DNA of 64,000 nt from Escherichia coli (GCF_003334305.1 NZ_QOWS01000023.1); one strand, 5' to 3'. Positions 21,501 to 32,515 are shown, numbered from the stretch's first letter. Notes: generated from the sequence alone by a model not told the origin. Translations and numbers: made by a program.

Positions 21501-22396
21501 TATTTCCCCCGTTTGGCGCGTGGATGCGCCGCATCGTACACCGAGGCAAGGTGTTGAAAATCAAGATGAGTATAGATTTGCGTGGTGGAGAGGTTGGCAT
21601 GACCCAGCAGCTCCTGCACACCACGAAGATCGCCGCTCGACTCCAGCATATGCGTAGCGAACGAGTGACGTAATTTATGTGGGTGAACGTGATTATTCAG
21701 CCCTTGTTTTATGCCCCATTCGGCAAAGCGTTTCTGCACATTACGCGCGGAGATACGCTTGCCCAGTTTCGACAGAAAAAGCGCGTCGTCTTCGCTACCA
21801 AACAGGTCGCGCAAATCAAGCCAGTGCTCAATCCACGCCACAGCGTTGCGACCAATCGGCAGGCGGCGCTCTTTGCTGCCTTTCCCCATTACCCACACTT
21901 CACCAGACTCCAGGTCGAGGTGTTTGATATCCAGCCCCACCAGCTCGGAAAGACGCAGACCCGCGCCGTACATCACTTCCAGCATTGCACGGTCGCGTAC
22001 AGCGAGGGGATCGTTGATATCAATATCCAGCAGCCGATTCATATCGTCGACGTCGATGTTTTTCGGCAGATGACGCGGCGCTTTCGGTGCCGAAACTCCT
22101 TTCGCCGGGTTAGCTTTGAGTTCGTTCTGGCTGACCAGCCAGTCAAAAAAGCTACGTAGCGCAGAAAGCCGTAACGCGAGGCTTGCTGCTCCCAGCCCTT
22201 TACGGCGACTGCGTACAGCAAAATTGCGCACCATCGTCACATCACATTGCTGCCAGCTTTGCAGGCCGTTTTCGCTGGCAAAATTGATGATCGCCTCAAG
22301 CTGACGCTGGTAGTTAAGCAGGGTTATCGGGCTAAGCTGGCGCTCCACGCTCAGATAACGTAGGTAGCGTTCTACATCGGTGTGTAAATCGGTCAT
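21500..22396 (-). CDS. xerC: tyrosine recombinase XerC (298 aa)
   Basis: [40 protein letters not shown]... with C-terminal HxxR...Y catalytic region. Confidence 0.95.
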
Positions 22397-23100
22397 ACGC
22401 GTTCAATCCAACGCTCCAGAAGCTCCGGCAACATCAGCGCAATTTCATGAAGTAACTGCGTTCCTTGCCCTTGTTGATAGTGACTGGCATCGCGACTGGT
22501 AAACAGCACGACACCCAAATCAGCATCGCTTCCCAGCATCGACATCGCCACCGATCCCACCGCTTTCGCTTCCGGTAGCACCACCAGCAGCTCTGGTCCG
22601 TTAAGCGGCCCAAGATAGTGCTGTTCCTGCCCCAAACGCTGAATACGCAGCGGTTCGAAAGACTGACGGCTTAATGCCAGATGAGTGTGGTTCGACGGCG
22701 CACCTAAGCGCCAGCGATCCGGAAACAGGCGCAGACTCGCACCTGCCAGGCCGAGATCGCGCGCCCAGCGGTGAAAGCGCATCAGCATATCGTCGAGACT
22801 GCTGGCGGCGGTGAGACTGCGCTGCAGGTAGAGTAGGCGATAAAACAGGCCTTCGTTGGCGATAGCCTGTTCCATCAACAGCGCCATGTTCTCTTCCAGA
22901 ACATGAATATGATTACGTGCGCGGGCCATGTGCCACTCGACCAACGAAACGGTGCCGCGTACCGGATGCGGCACACGTATCGCTTCTACTGCGCGCGCAT
23001 TACGGATAAAAAACTCAGGATTTTTAATCAGATAATCGACAACCGCCCGGTCATCAAGCTCCGTGAGTGTTTCCTGCAGTTCTTCCCCTGGTTGCTTCAT
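22393..23100 (-). CDS. yigA: DUF484-family protein YigA (235 aa)
   Basis: 235-aa ORF between dapF and xerC as in K-12; 4-bp overlaps with both neighbours. Confidence 0.85.
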
Positions 23101-23921
23101 AGATGAATAAATCCGTCGTAGACATGTACCGCCGGGCCAGTCATATATAACGGGTGACCCGGACCTTTCCAGGCGATATCAAGACGACCGCCGGGGAGTT
23201 CCACGCGTACTTCTTCGGCCAGCAAACCTTGCTGAATCCCTACTGCGACCGCCGCACACGCGCCGCTGCCGCAGGCCTGGGTTTCTCCTGCCCCACGCTC
23301 ATAAACGCGTAAACGAATATGCTCGCGCTTAACCACTTGCATAAAACCGATATTGGCGCGCTCCGGAAAACGCTCGTGGCTTTCCAGAACAGGACCAAGC
23401 GTTTCTACCGCCGCGGTATCGACATCATCGACCTGAATCACGCAATGCGGATTTCCCATCGACACCACGCCGCATAAGATTGTCTGCTCGGCGGCGCGCA
23501 TAATATAGGTCTTTTCCGCTTTGTTAGCGCGAAACGGCACGGCGGAAGGTTCGAAGTTGGGTTCGCCCATATTTACGCGGACCAGATCATCATCGGTGAC
23601 GGTCAGAACCATCCGCCCGTTGGCGGTGCTGACGCGGATATCACGCTTATTGGTCAGTCCTTTCAGACGCACAAAACGGGCAAAGCAGCGCGCACCGTTG
23701 CCGCACTGCGCCACTTCACTGCCATCAGCATTGAAAATGCGATAGTGAAAATCCAGTTCAGGATCATACGGCGGCTCAACCACCAGCAGTTGGTCAAACC
23801 CTACCCCCAGGTGCCGATCCGCCAGGCGACGAATCAGCTCCGGTGAAAAAAAGACATTCTGCGTTACCGCGTCGACGACCATAAAATCGTTGCCAAGGCC
23901 ATGCATTTTCGAGAACTGCAT
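23097..23921 (-). CDS. dapF: diaminopimelate epimerase (274 aa)
   Basis: ORF track 23097-23924; ATG at 23921 gives [37 protein letters not shown]... Confidence 0.95.
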
Positions 23922-23957
23922 CATTTACTCCAATCACGCGGGTACAGAAACTGACTT

Positions 23958-24161
23958 TTAGTAATTCACCTGGGATGGACCATCGCCAGTGGCGCGATCG
24001 TTTTTATCCGGCACCGTGGATTGCGTTTGCGTCTCTACCGGTTTGGTCGGCGGCGGTGCCTTTTTATCTGCAGGCGGGAAATAGAGCGGACCTTTCAGAC
24101 CGCAGCCCGTCAGGCTGAAGAGAGTAATTAATACAGTGAGTGCCTTAAACACGTTTTTCAT
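23958..24161 (-). CDS. yifL: small lipoprotein YifL (67 aa)
   Basis: ORF MKNVFKALTVLITLFSLTGCGLKGPLYFPPADKK... with LTGC lipobox. Confidence 0.8.
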   Translation of the reverse strand: MKNVFKALTVLITLFSLTGCGLKGPLYFPPADKKAPPPTKPVETQTQSTVPDKNDRATGDGPSQVNY

Positions 24162-24240
24162 TATGGATTGCCTGTAAAGTTCATCGCTTTCTGCTTTCTA
24201 TCATCGCAGGAGAAGGCGTAAAAGCAAGCGTTTAGCGACT

Positions 24241-24410
24241 CTTTATGAAGTCTGAAAAGTGAGGAAATGCTGCGAGTATAACGCTTACTCGTGGGGATTT
24301 ATGTTTTGCTGGTAGTTTCGTGATCGGCACCTCGCGCCAGGATGGCTCTATGCACTATCGCAATGTAGTTTGTTTGTTGGCTTGTTCGTTGTTCTTATCG
24401 TCGGCATGGA
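24241..24410. repeat. ~170-bp direct repeat, copy 1 (promoter-like leader plus truncated signal-peptide mini-ORF)
   Basis: Aligns by eye with 25324-25493 at high identity; contains ATG-initiated MHYRNVVCLLACSLFLSSAWSF* (22 codons) ending in a stop. Confidence 0.7.
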
Positions 24411-24510
24411 GCTTTTAAAAGAGTGGCGCACCATGCAATTTTGTTGTCTGACCTTAGTCGCCAGTGACATACAACTTTGCCAACCTGGTGATAAGAGGGA
24501 ATAAAATCTG

Positions 24511-25065
24511 ATGGGGCTATTTACCCAACTGGAAAAATTTGACCAAAAGCTTACGCGCGGTTATGCCCGGTGGGGGCGCTGGGTATGGCGGACGTTAATT
24601 GTCGTTCCGGTACTGGTCGTGTTGTGGAATATAGGACAGGCAGTATGGGGAGGACCAAGAGGTGGAGTGATTCTGGAAATCCACAGTGAAATTGACCGTC
24701 CGATACTGGGATTCAGTGTTAACGGCGTGGCGGGCGCGAATGCTTTTGCAAATGGTGGCGGTTCAATCACCTGTTGTGGTGATGTCAGTGGGGATACGGC
24801 AGAGGTTATCTGGACATTAGATATGACTCACGAGCAATATCTTAAAGGGATGCGTCTGGAGAAACGTAACAAGACTTTGCCTCTCCCAAAAAGAGAATGG
24901 GGAGAAAATTATCTGCATGTGCATTTTATGCCTGGCGATAAAGTGCTGCTGGGGTGGAGTAAAGATTCTTTTTCTCCGTATGAAGATCTTCACAACGGGG
25001 GGTACAAGACCCGCGTTCGGCAGGATGTGAAAGATAAACTTTATGGTACAGGGAAAATGAATTGA
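24511..25065 (+). CDS. hypothetical membrane-anchored protein (184 aa)
   Basis: ATG at 24511 preceded by aagaggga Shine-Dalgarno; N-terminal hydrophobic segment WVWRTLIVVPVLVVLWNIGQAVW; GGGSITCCGD motif. Confidence 0.6.
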   Translation: MGLFTQLEKFDQKLTRGYARWGRWVWRTLIVVPVLVVLWNIGQAVWGGPRGGVILEIHSEIDRPILGFSVNGVAGANAFANGGGSITCCGDVSGDTAEVIWTLDMTHEQYLKGMRLEKRNKTLPLPKREWGENYLHVHFMPGDKVLLGWSKDSFSPYEDLHNGGYKTRVRQDVKDKLYGTGKMN

Positions 25066-25323
25066 TAGATTTCTATAAAAATCACGTTCGGCAGAAAGCG
25101 TAATAATGTGGCGAATGTTAGATACCGGTGGTGGGACCTGAATACAACACGCGAAAGACAATAAAGTAGGTAACGGTGGGCAGAGTCGCATGTTGAAACC
25201 CTTCCCGGCGTCAATCCGGCACATTTTAACGTGATCAGTCACACCATGGCGCAGTACCTCGTATTTATATCGTGAATGAAAACCTCAAGTTTACACCAGC
25301 AACTATCAGAAAATAGCGATGAC

Positions 25324-25493
25324 CTTTATGGATTCTGAAAAGTGACGATTTGCTGCGAAAGTTACGCTTACGTGCGGAGATTTATGTTCTGCTGGTAGTT
25401 TCGTGATCGGCACCTCGCGCCAGGATGGCTTTATGCACTATCGCAATGTGGTTTGTTTGTTGGCTTGTTCATTGTTCTTATCGTCGGCATGGG
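25324..25493. repeat. ~170-bp direct repeat, copy 2 (includes the start of the 492-aa ORF)
   Basis: Aligns with 24241-24410; here the signal-peptide reading frame continues into a long ORF. Confidence 0.7.
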
Positions 25494-26911
25494 GATGTCG
25501 GCTTGATGCGCCTGAACATAATATTTACCAGAAACAGGGAAAAGGCGTGGTGTACCTGCGCCCTTATAAAGAAACAAATCTTTCTCTTCCTGACGTGAAT
25601 TACAAAAGTTTGCGCCGTTTACCCAATTTATTAATAGACCCGACAACACTAGACAAATGGGATAAAGTACCTCCTCTGACTGATCTGACAACCGACTACC
25701 TCTATGAAGGCGCACAGGCCTGGTATCCTCATTACTCCTGGCATAGCGATGGTCGCTATATCCTCTACGCGGGTGAAGTTGTGCAAAACCCGCCAGACAA
25801 ACCTCCCGTCGATGTCGCCTCGTTCAAGGCGTGGGGTGATTTTGCCGCAGATAAACACAGTCTCTATTTCGAAGGCAAGCGCACCGATAACAATGGCGGG
25901 GGAAATCGCTTAGATATCAAAACACTGCATCAGGTGGAATTCCGGCCTCCCTGGGATCCTGACTTACTGGGGCTGATATTACGTGACGCTAATTTCTTGT
26001 ATATCAATGGGCATCGCCTCGCAGATCCCGATAGTTTCCGTGTGCTGGCACAAAAGTCATGGGATCAGCGAGGAAAGTTTTCTACCGCGTTTAATCCCTG
26101 TGTGGCTATGCCATTTGGCCCCTGGGATACCCTGGCTCGTACACGGACCAAAATCCTGATCAACGGCGAACAGCTTGATGCCGACCCGGACACCTTTTCC
26201 GTCGTGCGCTGGATGCCCGGCTCACTCTTGACCTGGCGTGATAAAAACGGGCTGCAGCGTAAAGTCCTCGACAAGGAAAATCTGGAGTGGGATGAAGATT
26301 TAACAAAGCACTGTCTGGATTTTTCTCTGCTGGAAAAGAAAGTGTTCTGGCGTAAAGGACCTGCTTGTAAACAGGAAGAATTACCCGGACTCGATCCGGA
26401 GCAGTTTCAACCCATCAGTGATGCTGTCGCCCAGTATCAGGACTCGCTTTATACCATCATCGAAACAGAGTCTGGTGACCGCAAGCTGGAAATCGTGAAA
26501 CTTGATGATCCCAATCTTATTATCAACAAACGTTTCAACGCCGGGAAACGCCACGGCTATTTACTTACGCGTGCCGAAGGGTGGCCATACCATTCCGGTT
26601 TACATGTGTTTGAATCTGACGGACCGCTGATCTTACTGGATAACCGTTCTCCGGATGAACGCGAAGCCCATCTTAATGACCATCCCTTTTTGCGCAGATG
26701 GTATGCCCGCGATAACCGCTACATTTACAGCTTTGATGGCGCGCAGCTCTGGCGATACCGCACCGCTGATCCGAAACAAGTTCGCTTAATCTGGAAGGAA
26801 CAACATTCGGGATATGGCTATGGCGTAAATTACAAAACGGGATATCTGGACGGAAAAATTACTGATGACGGCGAATTTATTCCTGCCCCGCGCAATGAGG
26901 CGACAAAATGA
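25433..26911 (+). CDS. hypothetical exported or lipoprotein repeat protein (492 aa from ATG 25433; ORF track starts 25403)
   Basis: N-terminus MHYRNVVCLLACSLFLSSAWGC... signal/lipoprotein-like; internal recurring AD-x-D-[ST]-F and D-K-x-x-L-Y-F-x-G motifs; paralogous to the next ORF. Confidence 0.7.
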   Translation: MHYRNVVCLLACSLFLSSAWGCRLDAPEHNIYQKQGKGVVYLRPYKETNLSLPDVNYKSLRRLPNLLIDPTTLDKWDKVPPLTDLTTDYLYEGAQAWYPHYSWHSDGRYILYAGEVVQNPPDKPPVDVASFKAWGDFAADKHSLYFEGKRTDNNGGGNRLDIKTLHQVEFRPPWDPDLLGLILRDANFLYINGHRLADPDSFRVLAQKSWDQRGKFSTAFNPCVAMPFGPWDTLARTRTKILINGEQLDADPDTFSVVRWMPGSLLTWRDKNGLQRKVLDKENLEWDEDLTKHCLDFSLLEKKVFWRKGPACKQEELPGLDPEQFQPISDAVAQYQDSLYTIIETESGDRKLEIVKLDDPNLIINKRFNAGKRHGYLLTRAEGWPYHSGLHVFESDGPLILLDNRSPDEREAHLNDHPFLRRWYARDNRYIYSFDGAQLWRYRTADPKQVRLIWKEQHSGYGYGVNYKTGYLDGKITDDGEFIPAPRNEATK

Positions 26912-28233
26912 AGGGTCAAATAATCACAGTTGCACTCATCCTGTTGGGACACACATTTCTGACGCCTGCTGTACAGGCCATAGGGTTCGACTATTACAAT
27001 GATCACGGTGTTATGTCTTACGGTAAAGGTTATTGGGGGGATAAGAAAATCATTGCCCAATTTCCGAAGATGAACAGAGCCGATTTGCGCCTTGTGACAA
27101 ATATATCCGGGGAGCGGGAGTTGGTGGAAGGCTATATACCCACCGATGAAATAAGCATAAAAAATGAGGAATACCACTGGGTGACAGACGGCCGCGTTAT
27201 TCTCTGGCGTGGCAAAATCGTTAGCAATCCACCGGGAACACCCACTGTCGATATTGCCAGCTTTCAGGCTATGGGCCGCTTCGCGGTCGATAAATATAGC
27301 CTCTATTTTGACGGACAGCGCACCGAAAGTAATAGCGGCGCGTCACGTGTTGATCTGGCGACACTAAAAGCTATCGAAGGTAACTCTACCACGCTGGTGG
27401 ATAGTAAAAATCTCTATTTGTCCGGTCGACGTCAGGGGAGCAGCAGTAATGTTACTGTATTAGAAAAAAGATGGTGGGGTATTAATCCACGTCTTATGAG
27501 TGTAAACAGAAATTTGTATTCCAATGATCTGCTTATCCGCAGTGGGCAGAATATTTATTTAAATGGCGTTCACCTTACGGCGAATGCAGACTCATTTGAG
27601 ATAATTCGCTGGATACCTCATTCACTGCTGGTTTTTCGCGACAATAAGGGTATGCATCGTTATCCCTTTGGGCAATTGTCTGGCAAAGCGATACCCGTAG
27701 ATGATGACGTCTCTTTTGAAGTAGGGGAAAGTCGCGTTCGCTGGCGTAAACAGCTCACGTCCGACCGTCAGTGGAGCAAGTGGATAGACCTACCAGATAT
27801 TGAACCTGAACAATTCCATCTGATTACTGGCAATATTGCGCAATATAAAGATCGGCTGTATGTAACAAAATTATCGACATTTGGTGAAGACCAGCTTGAG
27901 ATAATCCCGCTGGATACGCCAGACCTGGTCATTGATCGCTCATTTAATAGCGGCAAACAGCATGCTTATTTTATCCGCCAATTACGGTCAAAGAGCGTGC
28001 AAATTATTCCAGTTAACGGTCCGCTAACTAAAAACGATCGCTTCGCTTATGACGATCGCAATGTTTATACATGGACCGATACAGAGGTAAGGATTACGCC
28101 CTCCCCCTGCCCGGCGAAAACACACGTCAGAGAAGAGAATGTGCGTGAACTTCACAACAGAGACATTATTATTCCGTTGACGGATGACTCATGCCGGAAC
28201 GCAGCAACAGACGGGCAAACTTTGAAGCCCTGA
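26908..28233 (+). CDS. hypothetical secreted repeat protein (441 aa), paralogue of the upstream ORF
   Basis: N-terminal signal peptide MKGQIITVALILLGHTFLTPAVQA; shares conserved blocks with the 492-aa protein (e.g. NPPGTPTVDIASFQAMGRFAVDKYSLYFDGQRT vs NPPDKPPVDVASFKAWGDFAADKHSLYFEGKRT); ATGA start/stop overlap. Confidence 0.7.
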   Translation: MKGQIITVALILLGHTFLTPAVQAIGFDYYNDHGVMSYGKGYWGDKKIIAQFPKMNRADLRLVTNISGERELVEGYIPTDEISIKNEEYHWVTDGRVILWRGKIVSNPPGTPTVDIASFQAMGRFAVDKYSLYFDGQRTESNSGASRVDLATLKAIEGNSTTLVDSKNLYLSGRRQGSSSNVTVLEKRWWGINPRLMSVNRNLYSNDLLIRSGQNIYLNGVHLTANADSFEIIRWIPHSLLVFRDNKGMHRYPFGQLSGKAIPVDDDVSFEVGESRVRWRKQLTSDRQWSKWIDLPDIEPEQFHLITGNIAQYKDRLYVTKLSTFGEDQLEIIPLDTPDLVIDRSFNSGKQHAYFIRQLRSKSVQIIPVNGPLTKNDRFAYDDRNVYTWTDTEVRITPSPCPAKTHVREENVRELHNRDIIIPLTDDSCRNAATDGQTLKP

Positions 28234-28280
28234 CCCCATACCGCTATACTGCCGCCATCACTTAAAGACAGGATACAACA

Positions 28281-28601
28281 ATGAACGACAGTGAATTTCA
28301 TCGCCTGGCTGATCAACTCTGGCTGACCATTGAAGAACGCCTGGACGACTGGGATGGCGACAGCGATATCGACTGCGAAATCAACGGCGGCGTACTGACC
28401 ATTACCTTTGAAAACGGCAGCAAAATCATTATTAACCGCCAGGAGCCGCTGCACCAGGTGTGGCTGGCAACCAAACAGGGCGGCTACCATTTTGACCTAA
28501 AAGGCGATGAGTGGATTTGCGATCGCAGCGGCGAAACCTTCTGGGATTTGCTGGAACAGGCGGCGACGCAGCAGGCGGGTGAAACAGTCAGTTTCCGCTA
28601 A
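28281..28601 (+). CDS. cyaY: frataxin homologue CyaY (106 aa)
   Basis: [66 protein letters not shown]... recognised as CyaY. Confidence 0.95.
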
Positions 28602-28640
28602 GATTGCATGCCGGATAAGCCTCGCTTTCCGGCACGTTCA

Positions 28641-31187
28641 TCACGAAAAATACTGCTGTAATAGCGGCGTATCGTGATCCTGATTGGCAGGCGGCATGTT
28701 ACCGATAGATTTTGTGCGGAACGGAATCACCTGTTCACGACCATCAACCTTCACAATCTGATAGAACTGCGGCAGGTTGAAGTTGATGAAGCTTGAGCCG
28801 TAGGTAAAACGGTCATGCGATGACGAGTAGAAGCGACTGACGTCACGTACCAGCTCCTCTTTGCTGCCTTCGCAGTGGTGATACACCTCAACCCGGTTGC
28901 TTTCGTCGAGAATGTAGATATTAAAGCCATTCTCGTCTTGCGTTTCTTCGAAAAAGAACTGGATGATCCCTTCGCTGGCAAAGCCGTCCACCACCGCCGG
29001 TAATTTGACGTGATTGGTTTCAACCTGCACTGACAGGCCGTGCAGTTTGTTATGCGAAATCGCGCCATAAAACTCGATGGCGTTTTCCAGTTTCTGTACC
29101 GATACATTCAGGCGTTCGAAGAACAACCCCCAGGTTTGACCAGAAACGCGCAGCGCCTTGAAACGCCCGGTTTCCTGGCGGGTGCTGGAAAGGCGCAGTT
29201 CAATACACTCAGAAACCAGTTGCTGCACGCGAGTACGGATTAAGCCGCGCAGATGCTGGCTATAACAGAAGACTTCCACGCTATCTGGCGGTGCGGCGTC
29301 CTGATGCATTTTGCCGAGAATAGTTTTCAGGGCTTCGATCATCGATTGCTCGCCGTTGAAGTGCAGCGTACGCACTTCGTTCCACGAGTTGCGGTACAGC
29401 AGGTCAACGCTACCTACCAGGCAATTTTGATTCTCGCCAAAGCTGAAGACATCCAGCTTACGGAAATCAAAATGCACCACCTGATTGCGGAACGCCGCTG
29501 TCGGGTCATATTCCAGGTTAACGATAATCGCCAGATGGCGGATCTCACACGGGCTGTAGAGCGCCTTCGGTGTCGGTGCAGGTAAGCGCAGCGGGAAATG
29601 GTGCGACACGTCGGCGACCATCTCCTGCAACTTAGGCAAATCGACAATGCCGTTACCTTTAATATACAAACGGGTGCGCGAGGTCAGCAGGCCGTTAAAC
29701 CATGCCCACGCCACCAGTTTGTTCAGGTAACGGTTATATTCCAGCGGCTGATGGCTGATGATCGACTCAATATTTGGCGCGCGGTTATACAGATACCAAC
29801 CTGAACGGTTAGCACGGCCCGGCGGCACATAAATAAAGGTCAGATTCGGTTCCGAGAGATCGGGTGAAATCTGCGGGTTTACCAGCGTCACTTTACCTGG
29901 TAATGCTTCAAACGCGGCATACAGCTTACGCGTCAGCACGCCGATATCCTGCGGACTGGCGGAGACGCTAAGGTTATTGCGACGCGCAAAGCGGATCAGA
30001 TTACGGTAGCTCTGCATCATCGCGTCGAGCAACTCGTTGTGCGCCTCACGCACCTGATCAATCTTCCAGTTAGCGCGGTTATCGAGCATTGCCAGACGAG
30101 CTTCGTCCCAACCCCACTCGCTCACTAACTGGCTCAACACTGCGCGACGCCAGCCTACGCAGGCGCGTTCACGGCTGAGCTTTTCGCACACTTTTAAATA
30201 GAAGCAGCGACGTACTAAATCCAGACGGGTAAAATCTTCAATCGCCGTCAGGTATTCAGTAACACGCTCCAGCATCATGCAGTATGGATCGAGACCAAAC
30301 GATACAATCTCGCCGTCGTGCAAACGCTGTTTGATATCTTTCGCCAGCAGACGTGGGTTCGGGTATTCCCAGGAATAGGCTTCCAGCAGCAGTGTTTTCA
30401 GTACCGCTTTGTATGGGGAATCGATACTCTTGTAGAGCTGCCAGAGGCTGGCACCAAAGTACTCTTCAGCAGAAAGCGAGCTTAAGCCACCGAGATCCAG
30501 CCATTCATTTGGCGTCAGCACGCCCTGCGCGTAAAGCGTCATCACATAGTCGTCGTAATGCTCTTCTTCGTCGCACGGCACCATATTCCACAGAATACGC
30601 TTACCGGCGAGACGCACGGCGGTACGATAAAATTCGTCAAGCAGCAGTATATGCTGGGTGGAGCCACAATCTTCGCCCCCCAGGCTGCCGCTTTCATTAT
30701 GACGGAAGCGGTTTTCATCAATCAGGAAGAAGCTGACTTCCACACCCAGCGAGGCGGCCCAGCTTTCCAGCAGACTACATTTACGTTGTAGTAACTGGCG
30801 CTCTTCGCTATCGAGCCAGGATTGATGACAGACCCAGATATCCAGGTCAGAGGAACAACTTTGCCCTACGGACGAGGTGCTGCCCATGGTGTATACACCA
30901 GTAATTGGAAGCTCACCTTTCGGTGGGTCCTGTACTGACATTCCACGATACAGTTCAAGCTCGTTCAGGTAGTGGCGTTGAGTTTCATCAGGCGTGTAAA
31001 GGCAAATGCCTTTGGGAACGTTACCATCAAGGTAACCCGGCATTAGCGGATGGTGATAGTGCAACAATGTCGGCAGTAGACTGTAGACCTGTTGGAATGC
31101 AGGCCCCATAGCAGCAAGCGCGCGATCCACACGCAATTGATTTATGGCATCCAGTCTCTGTTTCAGAGTCTCAATATAGAGGTACAA
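28641..31187 (-). CDS. cyaA: adenylate cyclase (848 aa), TTG start
   Basis: 848-aa ORF beginning (TTG)[46 protein letters not shown]...; I recall cyaA using a UUG start in E. coli. Confidence 0.96.
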
Positions 31188-31573
31188 GACGTATCGCCTG
31201 ATTTGCTACCCGTCATGACTGTGATTCCGCCAACATCAACGGTAACACGCGGCATTCGGGATATTTCGTATGTCAAAGGTAACCGTTACCACTTTTCGCG
31301 CCTGGTTTTTTTAGTTTCACGACGAAAAAATGGTCTAAAACGTGATCAATTTAACACCTTGCTGATTGACCGTAAAGAAAGATGCGCTACATACAAGTGT
31401 AGCACCGTTTATTCTCTGTAAATTCCTTATTACGACGGCGTGAAACGCCTGTCAGGATCCACTGCCAGACCTCATTTTACGGTTTGCGCAGGCGTCTACG
31501 TTTCACCACAACACTGACATCACTCTGGCAAGGATGTTAGGATGGACCACGGATGATAATGACGGTAACAAGC
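31188..31573. promoter_or_regulatory. cyaA / hemC divergent promoter region
   Basis: 386-bp divergent intergenic region; individual promoters not resolved. Confidence 0.4.
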
Positions 31574-32515
31574 ATGTTAGACAATGTTTTAAGAATTGCC
31601 ACACGCCAAAGCCCACTTGCACTCTGGCAGGCACACTATGTCAAAGACAAGTTGATGGCGAGCCATCCGGGCCTGGTGGTTGAACTGGTACCGATGGTGA
31701 CGCGCGGCGATGTGATTCTTGATACGCCGCTGGCGAAAGTAGGCGGAAAAGGCTTATTTGTAAAAGAGCTGGAAGTCGCGCTCCTGGAGAATCGCGCCGA
31801 TATCGCCGTACATTCAATGAAAGATGTGCCGGTTGAATTCCCGCAAGGTCTGGGGTTGGTCACTATTTGTGAGCGTGAAGATCCTCGCGATGCCTTTGTG
31901 TCCAATAATTATGACAGTCTGGATGCGTTACCGGCAGGCAGTATCGTCGGGACGTCCAGTTTACGTCGCCAGTGCCAACTGGCTGAACGCCGCCCGGATC
32001 TGATTATCCGCTCCCTGCGCGGCAACGTCGGCACTCGCCTGAGCAAACTAGATAACGGCGAATACGATGCCATCATTCTTGCCGTAGCCGGACTAAAACG
32101 TTTAGGTCTGGAGTCCCGCATTCGCGCCGCGTTACCACCCGAGATTTCTCTTCCGGCGGTAGGACAAGGTGCAGTCGGTATTGAATGCCGCCTTGATGAT
32201 ACGCGCACTCGCGAGCTGCTTGCCGCGCTGAATCACCACGAAACTGCACTGCGCGTTACCGCAGAACGCGCCATGAATACCCGTCTCGAAGGTGGATGTC
32301 AGGTGCCAATTGGTAGCTACGCCGAGCTTATTGATGGTGAAATCTGGCTGCGTGCGCTGGTCGGCGCGCCGGACGGTTCGCAGATTATTCGCGGTGAACG
32401 CCGCGGTGCGCCGCAAAATGCCGAACAAATGGGGATTTCGCTGGCAGAAGAGCTACTGAATAACGGCGCGCGCGAGATCCTCGCTGAAGTCTATAACGGA
32501 GACGCCCCGGCATGA
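31574..32515 (+). CDS. hemC: porphobilinogen deaminase (313 aa)
   Basis: ORF track 31553-32515; ATG at 31574 gives [34 protein letters not shown]... Confidence 0.95.

Follow-up and report, generated by a model that had tools for sequence, protein, structure and literature searches.

Three open reading frames (ORFs) on the plus strand, encoding proteins of 184, 492 and 441 amino acids (aa), fill the interval between lptM (yifL) and cyaY in the stretch of Escherichia coli DNA analyzed here (64,000 nucleotides (nt) of NZ_QOWS01000023.1, hereafter the window). How did they get there, and what might they do? The original prediction took them for an accessory insertion into a core locus. This holds in part: the locus is accessory in E. 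coli, and a 914-bp cassette carrying the first gene, ORF1, has been inserted, but the pair formed by ORF2 and ORF3 is ancestral at the site. Our best explanation, to which we assign a probability of about 0.65, is that an old polymorphic locus with a coupled pair of exported proteins was reshaped by recombination at a shared leader sequence, was reduced in K-12 and most E. coli by an internal deletion, and has captured a DUF3304 gene copy from a type VI secretion system (T6SS) module in strains such as the one studied here.

History of the gene pair

Pairs of the ORF2/ORF3 type (about 490 and about 425 aa) occupy the identical lptM/cyaY site in Citrobacter, Klebsiella spallanzanii, Atlantibacter and Pseudocitrobacter, and one also lies between lptM and cyaY on a Klebsiella-like metagenome contig. 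Klebsiella carries three or four paralogues in this interval. In Salmonella enterica, the same site codes for a single protein of 670 aa (L013 10001-12013), in which a complete ORF2-type protein continues in frame into the last ~190 aa of an ORF3-type protein. This fusion is widespread there, with 786 member sequences, and the position at which its two parts meet hints at a domain border around ORF3 residue 260. E. coli KK19-02 encodes a 675-aa protein (L022 8644-10671) that resembles the Salmonella fusion in length and position; its identity as a fusion is putative.

The K-12 genome contains traces of the same pair. As stated in the original prediction, yifL and cyaY are close neighbors there, only 462 bp apart, yet the spacer between them is not empty: it is made up of the leader, a piece of ORF2 of ~150 nt, or about 50 codons, and 77 nt from the 3' end of ORF3, and RefSeq annotates it as a DKNYY pseudogene, a remnant of ORF2. 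Since K-12 keeps the leader and both ends of the pair, its state is an internal deletion of about 2.6 kb, and the lptM/cyaY spacer of K-12 should be read as a deletion scar. An insertion of the pair is thus not borne out, given its presence at the same site in four other genera, its fused form in Salmonella and the remnant in K-12. Rather than having been inserted, the pair, judged from these sequences, belongs to an old, strain-variable locus of the Enterobacteriaceae which is mostly deleted in K-12.

Within E. coli, we compared the presence and absence of the interval across 5,426 complete genomes, the sample behind all frequencies given below. At least 80% of the pair body is found in 1,425 of them (~26%) and any match in 1,866, while the ORF1 cassette is present at lptM-cyaY in about 1,075 (~20%). 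Some 448 genomes with only a 60-80% match to the pair probably represent a second locus between cycA and ytfE. At least five E. coli forms exist: the remnant; a two-gene form with the pair only (B2/avian pathogenic E. coli IMT5155); a three-gene form with ORF1 and the pair (the window, IAI1); a five-gene form with ORF1 and two pairs; and a form with ORF1, the pair and the putative 675-aa fusion. At 98-99.8% identity, the pair is present in both IAI1 and O26:H11 11368. Between the window and the B2 allele of ORF2 (L004 1951-3420), synonymous divergence (dS) reaches 0.48, compared to 0.06 for dapF and 0.09 for ORF3. The ORF2 alleles of E. coli are thus very old. The values point to recombination, or else to allelic lineages that persisted for long, the breakpoint lying within the pair.

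In Klebsiella, a TnpB (Cas12f1-like) fragment adjoins lptM in the lptM-cyaY interval (L019 4038-4355), and a GntR-aminotransferase regulator, an amidohydrolase and two major facilitator superfamily transporters are encoded before cyaY (L019 9641-16304, L007 14108-20772). The interval thus collects other cargo too.

Locus layout, leader repeat and cassette

Strain A7 (orangutan faeces) is 100% identical to the window, and RefSeq annotates the same three genes there. In window coordinates, the locus comprises the following features:

23958-24161, minus strand: lptM (yifL), left core flank, divergent from the locus (ORF list and RefSeq annotation of A7)
24241-24409, plus strand: leader copy 1, with upstream region, AGGA ribosome-binding site (RBS) and the first 20 ORF2-type codons, MHYRNVVCLLACSLFLSSAW
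24410-25323, plus strand: inserted cassette of 914 bp between the two leader copies, missing from the two-gene form
24411-24467, plus strand: fragments of a DUF4123 (Tla1-like adaptor) gene (blastn against strain no107)
24511-25065, plus strand: ORF1, 184 aa, a DUF3304 protein anchored in the membrane at its N-terminus; candidate for an orphan immunity gene of the T6SS
25192-25279, plus strand: remnant of a further DKNYY-like paralogue, VETLPGVNPAHFNVISHTMAQY (blastn and frame translation)
25324-25492, plus strand: leader copy 2 (direct repeat), running into the intact ORF2
25433-26911, plus strand: ORF2, 492 aa, probable lipoprotein, all-beta, DKNYY-like
26908-28233, plus strand: ORF3, 441 aa, soluble periplasmic paralogue of ORF2 with Sec signal
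28281-28601, plus strand: cyaY, right core flank (ORF list and RefSeq annotation of A7)

Both the ORF list and the sequence agree with the earlier description of three same-strand ORFs, the last two overlapping by ATGA. The ORF2/ORF3 junction reads ...acaaaATGAagggt, and ORF3 is translationally coupled to ORF2 via this ATGA. An alternative GTG start at 25403 would extend ORF2 to 502 aa; the ATG at 25433 is the likely start because an AGGA lies 7 nt upstream and the MxYRN N-terminus is conserved across genera. The GC content is 0.43-0.52 within the interval and 0.54-0.59 in the dapF-xerC flank. Neither an integrase, a transposase, a tRNA gene nor interval-flanking repeats were found by ORF list and repeat search, Rfam gave no RNA element within 22000-32000, and no secretion-system genes adjoin the lptM-cyaY interval.

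The ORF1 cassette lies between the two copies of a direct repeat of 169 nt (24241-24409 and 25324-25492), which are 90% identical. Leader copy 1 and the leader of the B2 and K-12 forms, which have only one, share 98% identity. Copy 1 is broken just before the lipobox Cys codon and terminates as a 22-codon stub (24351-24419). In the two-gene form (L004), the single leader joins 24409 to 25324; therefore, 24410-25323 is a real insertion of 914 bp. This cassette consists of two pieces of a DUF4123 gene (28 nt from its interior and its final 35 nt), the intergenic spacer behind it with the RBS, ORF1 and a ~90-nt paralogue remnant. When compared by blastn to strain no107, window 24411-24438 corresponds to L012 6789-6816, and 24433 onward to L012 7001 onward, with the DUF4123 coding sequence of no107 ending at L012 7035. 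Window 24433-25072 is 96.4% identical to the no107 DNA that covers the 3' end of the DUF4123 gene and the DUF3304 gene. The remnant at 25192-25279 shows 76% identity (blastn) to the fourth paralogue of K. spallanzanii (L007 13526-13617).

The five-gene form has three leader copies, and the leader is therefore a recurrent recombination junction of the array. As part of the explanation favored above, we propose that the modules begin with a shared leader of ~110-170 nt and that recombination within it duplicated, fused or deleted modules. In this view, the conserved leader would serve as a landing pad at which envelope genes are duplicated, fused, deleted or captured, always at one fixed position in the core genome. 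In their 5' part, upstream of the ORF2-type start, both leader copies also contain a terminator-like hairpin with a T-rich run (24270-24294, and in altered form 25353-25378). We dropped this hairpin as a candidate functional element because it is not conserved in other genera.

ORF1, a captured DUF3304 gene

The original prediction could link none of the three proteins to a known activity by motif. For ORF1, such a link emerged: it is a DUF3304 protein, named accordingly in RefSeq, and its match to the Pfam model (PF11745) is weak (independent E-value (i-E) 2.6e-4) but near full-length (model positions 6-95 of 97). ORF1 is 97% identical in amino acid sequence to a gene of strain no107 that sits between DUF4123 and DUF2235 genes, i.e., in the immunity position. 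There, the T6SS gene order is TssH, VgrG, DUF4123, DUF3304, a second DUF3304 pseudogene and DUF2235, and the DUF4123 protein matches the NCBIfam Tla1 model at 1.2e-8. In another strain, a 65%-identical version of ORF1 occupies the same position, next to a gene annotated as 'phospholipase effector Tle1 domain-containing protein'. In P. aeruginosa, B. thailandensis, K. pneumoniae and V. cholerae, the immunity proteins that counter Tle1 effectors are DUF3304 proteins (PMC13133936), and DUF3304 is the most abundant domain encoded downstream of Klebsiella vgrG genes (PMC12469244).

At lptM-cyaY, ORF1 lies between lptM and ORF2, with no Tle1-family effector or DUF4123 adaptor gene adjoining. By sequence inspection, it has a hydrophobic segment at about residues 28-46, following a basic N-terminus, and no lipobox Cys. 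Periplasmic exposure through a signal anchor is plausible. The gene retains its native RBS. Four ORF1-type copies compared with the window are all intact; the ratio of nonsynonymous to synonymous divergence (dN/dS), estimated from small counts, is 0.17-0.37 in three of them, while one synonymous change is all that separates the fourth from the window.

The presumed effector is distributed differently. The no107-type DUF2235 allele occurs in 43 of the 5,426 genomes, with any blastn-detectable homologue in 618, and the ORF1 cassette is thus about 25 times commoner than the effector allele. The 42 genomes with a full-length copy of this allele at 99% identity or more do not include strain A7, though a divergent Tle1 elsewhere in A7 is possible. 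The aspV-linked T6SS region of A7 (905-1050 kb, 145 kb) encodes Hcp, VgrG and Rhs proteins but neither a DUF3304 nor a Tle1 gene. Given the rarity of the effector allele relative to ORF1 and the failure to find the effector in A7, the most likely identity of ORF1 is that of an orphan immunity gene of the T6SS.

The 914-bp cassette carries a DUF3304 copy that stems from a T6SS module of VgrG, DUF4123 adaptor, DUF3304 and DUF2235 Tle1-like genes. We envision the following scenario. ORF1, probably transcribed from leader copy 1, would be held by its anchor in the inner membrane and expose its DUF3304 beta-sandwich to the periplasm. There, it might bind and neutralize the Tle1-like effector when one of the rare E. 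coli strains that bear the module injects it. If ORF1 does protect, about a fifth of E. coli would be immune to a T6SS effector deployed by less than 1% of strains, and how orphan immunity shapes the competition among gut strains could be tested on a concrete example.

The ORF2/ORF3 family

ORF2 and ORF3 share 35% identity over 325 aa (E = 4e-61) and are consequently paralogues. Among the N-termini of 17 family members that we compared, every aligned ORF2-type sequence has a signal peptide ending in Cys. In the window, this signal peptide ends AWG/C (Cys22); the same AWG/C is present in Escherichia, Citrobacter, Salmonella, Klebsiella, Atlantibacter and Pseudocitrobacter, and LA/C, IA/C, TA/C or QA/C is found in paralogues. 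AWGC is a non-canonical lipobox at positions -3 and -2, and the lipobox was called from sequence inspection. Nearly all ORF3-type proteins carry an ordinary Sec signal instead, which in the window ends ...AVQA/I. The unit is therefore a probable lipoprotein combined with a soluble periplasmic paralogue. The earlier expectation that all three products of the locus are exported or membrane-anchored thus agrees with the signals seen by inspection.

Close relatives of ORF3 were found in Enterobacteriaceae only. A profile search of 1.84 billion representatives gave 89 hits at E <= 1e-3, and those traced to a named organism all belong to the Enterobacterales (Salmonella, Klebsiella, Leminorella and Limnobaculum). 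Matches to the Pfam DKNYY model (PF13644) are marginal, with i-E values of 0.032 and 0.075 for ORF3 and 9.4 for ORF2; pair homologues in other genera carry precomputed 'faint' DKNYY hits. NCBIfam, PADLOC and PHROGs returned no match for either protein. Nor did a sequence-profile search of the PDB, and an hhalign self-comparison for internal repeats was not significant. The fold has no solved counterpart. The AlphaFold2 model of ORF3 is confident and all-beta (pLDDT, the predicted local distance difference test, 83.5; pTM, the predicted template modeling score, 0.73). Foldseek against AFDB50 retrieved family members only, all annotated as DKNYY or lipoprotein, and no adhesin-like or receptor-like fold match was obtained for the pair.

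Both genes are under purifying selection, with dN/dS of 0.10-0.18 for ORF2 and 0.14-0.30 for ORF3. In a comparison with Citrobacter, the pair has a dN of 0.16-0.28, and dapF and cyaY have one of 0.015-0.026; the pair proteins thus evolve about 10 times faster. Taken together, ORF2 and ORF3 represent a compact, well-modeled, exported and fast-evolving group without a solved fold relative. We found no relevant literature under the name DKNYY or under the RefSeq protein accessions, and the absence of the pair from K-12 may explain why the family was never studied.

Outside the lptM-cyaY interval, the pair occurs in several contexts. In Leminorella, it is located at an unrelated site, in the order hda/pair/arsC. 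A second E. coli locus has the order cycA/pair/ytfE (AGR6137, L026 7494-10175; SCU-124, L027 7501-10184); here, a ~386-aa Sec-signal protein is followed by a ~495-aa lipoprotein (..SIA/C), the reverse of the order in the window, and the proteins are 31-36% identical to ORF2 and ORF3. In Limnobaculum zhutongyuii (L015 10001-21314), a 437-aa member with the lipobox ..AQA/C is convergent to the end of a VgrG and Rhs array. This array includes orphan Rhs-tip and immunity genes, among them an Imm33-like one, and it is the sole toxin-adjacent context of the family that we found. In the two E. coli T6SS loci examined, tblastn detected no homologue of the pair.

Proposed role and alternative explanations

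What the pair does can only be addressed tentatively. We consider it possible, though doubtful and weakly inferred, that ORF2 and ORF3 form a periplasmic binding or inhibitor module, one part lipoprotein and one part soluble, which acts in an antagonistic interaction. Such an interaction would account for the fast, lineage-specific divergence of the pair; its divergence, changes in copy number, repeated loss, envelope location and the capture of an immunity-type gene in its array fit an antagonistic role. One might even speculate that DKNYY-like pairs constitute an unrecognized class of periplasmic defense or immunity proteins against interbacterial toxins, kept at the fixed addresses lptM-cyaY and cycA-ytfE, but this is unlikely. 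If true, arrays with a shared leader could take up genuine immunity genes as well, the DUF3304 copy being one, and would correspond in enterobacteria to the acquired interbacterial defense islands of Bacteroidales, but with no dedicated recombinase.

Several observations weigh against the history and roles proposed here. The Pfam DUF3304 hit of ORF1 is weak, and ORF1 reaches only 21.4 bits against the NCBIfam model Tli1a_fam, far below the cut-off of 110 (its T6SS-linked E. coli homologues also fall below it, with 21-24 bits). ORF1 has a transmembrane anchor instead of the lipoprotein signal of characterized Tli1 proteins, and a consensus scan found no promoter upstream of it. In A7, a second megablast match of the query was not located. 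The DUF2235 proteins encoded in the partner position (no107, L012 8496-10442; L011 9603-11471) match Pfam PF09994 at i-E 0.04-0.05 only, in two pieces, and DUF2235 proteins beside DUF3304 lack GxSxG, with no107 having 'GYDTG' at residues 220-224. Without this motif and with so weak a match, the partner may not be a classical phospholipase, and the toxin chemistry is uncertain; these proteins might represent a Tle1-family variant that has diverged or does not rely on serine. Regarding the pair, T6SS genes are missing from the contexts in Leminorella, L017, L018 and cycA-ytfE, no toxin gene was found directly beside a pair member apart from the convergent neighbor in Limnobaculum, and long-term synteny is unusual for immunity genes. 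Finally, all functional statements are inferred.

How do other explanations compare? The interval could be a recently acquired accessory island that entered a conserved core locus and whose genes code for secreted effectors or for proteins that bind to surfaces. The three intact genes are indeed missing from K-12 and about 70% of E. coli, their GC content is below that of the flanks, and all three products bear export signals. However, the pair resides at the same site in five other genera, fused in Salmonella, both of its ends are kept in K-12, and the interval has neither integrase, transposase, tRNA gene or flanking repeats nor adjacent secretion-system genes. Synteny and the K-12 remnant thus largely refute this explanation for the pair, the idea of a secreted effector found no support in any result, and we regard a recent island as very improbable. 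For ORF1, a non-functional by-product of recombination with a T6SS cluster has to be considered, i.e., a hitch-hiker that has not decayed yet. Gene debris surrounds ORF1 (the DUF4123 fragments, the 22-codon stub and the paralogue remnant), no promoter-like site was found, and the lipoprotein signal of characterized Tli1 proteins is missing. Yet all copies examined are full-length, with dN/dS of 0.17-0.37 in three of four, the native RBS is kept, the gene lies downstream of the leader that drives ORF2-type genes, and it persists in about 1,075 genomes, all of which makes mere debris rather unlikely.

Two further explanations concern the pair alone. It might serve envelope biogenesis or maintenance in connection with lptM (LptD maturation) or dapF (peptidoglycan) and would then be no conflict system at all. 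The divergent order with lptM is conserved across genera, together with a highly conserved shared intergenic segment, and the products are a lipoprotein and a periplasmic protein. A housekeeping factor of this kind is nevertheless improbable for genes that are lost in most E. coli, recur at unrelated loci (hda/arsC in Leminorella, cycA/ytfE in some E. coli), evolve at ~10 times the rate of their flanks at the protein level and vary in copy number from 0 to 4. Alternatively, fast evolution, copy-number variation and envelope location would suit a surface or periplasmic module, unrelated to T6SS, that keeps phages or bacteriocins from entering or serves in adhesion, and T6SS genes are missing in most contexts of the pair. 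We rate this as unlikely too, since PADLOC and PHROGs gave no match, no adhesin-like or receptor-like fold was recovered, and the sole functionally informative neighbor is the captured T6SS immunity-type gene. Thus, an old polymorphic locus with a captured DUF3304 gene is preferred.

Comparison with known systems

The closest known counterparts of the pair are the proteins of the Pfam family DKNYY (PF13644). ORF2 and ORF3 share with them repeated D-x-x-x-[LIV]-Y-x-x-G units, and many alleles are named 'DKNYY family protein' in RefSeq and UniProt. Unlike DKNYY proteins at large, the ORF2/ORF3 sub-family is small, mainly found in Enterobacterales and organized in pairs of a lipoprotein and a soluble protein, with model matches at i-E 0.03-9 only. 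A periplasmic inhibitor family with both a lipoprotein and a soluble form exists in the MliC/PliC lysozyme inhibitors, which are small (about 100 aa). They may serve as an analogy for how the pair could work; they have no sequence or fold relationship to ORF2 and ORF3 and are not coupled pairs.

Outside the window, strain A7 carries a P4-like satellite at a tRNA-Thr gene (record 1008456-1019894; L025 8456-19894). Its integrase gene is followed by genes for an 'ATP-dependent nuclease' and a 'UvrD-helicase domain' protein, an arrangement that resembles a Gabija-type anti-phage system.

ORF1 shares the DUF3304 domain with the DUF3304-type Tli1 proteins of P. aeruginosa (Tli1a/PA3291), K. pneumoniae, B. 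thailandensis and V. cholerae. The P. aeruginosa vgrG4a island even comprises the same gene set as the module of the ORF1 homologue, namely VgrG, DUF4123, DUF3304 and DUF2235 (PMC13133936). In contrast to characterized Tli1 proteins, ORF1 scores far below the Tli1a cut-off, has a transmembrane anchor and stands alone, far from any T6SS genes, and unlike in Tli1 modules, the DUF2235 partner of its homologue has no GxSxG. The same role as proposed for ORF1, facing the periplasm of E. coli, is described for Tli1 of enteroaggregative E. coli (EAEC), the immunity protein to the Sci-1 effector Tle1 (Flaugnatti 2016, as summarized in PMC6730261 and 10.1101/2024.03.05.583533). The gene for EAEC Tli1 follows tle1, and its product is an outer-membrane lipoprotein with the domain DUF2931. 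We therefore rejected an identity of ORF1 with EAEC Tli1, as DUF2931 is a different family.

Lacking an adjacent effector, ORF1 resembles the orphan immunity genes and arrays of the auxiliary clusters of V. cholerae and the acquired interbacterial defense islands of Bacteroidales (cited in PMC6730261 and PMC12469244). Unlike in such arrays, ORF1 is single and lies outside any T6SS cluster or recombinase-associated island; it is found in a core-genome locus among unrelated exported paralogues, with a duplicated leader around it. While orphan immunity and DUF3304 are thus already known, the new aspect is the architecture, in which cassettes with a common leader form an array within the core genome and at a distance from any T6SS.

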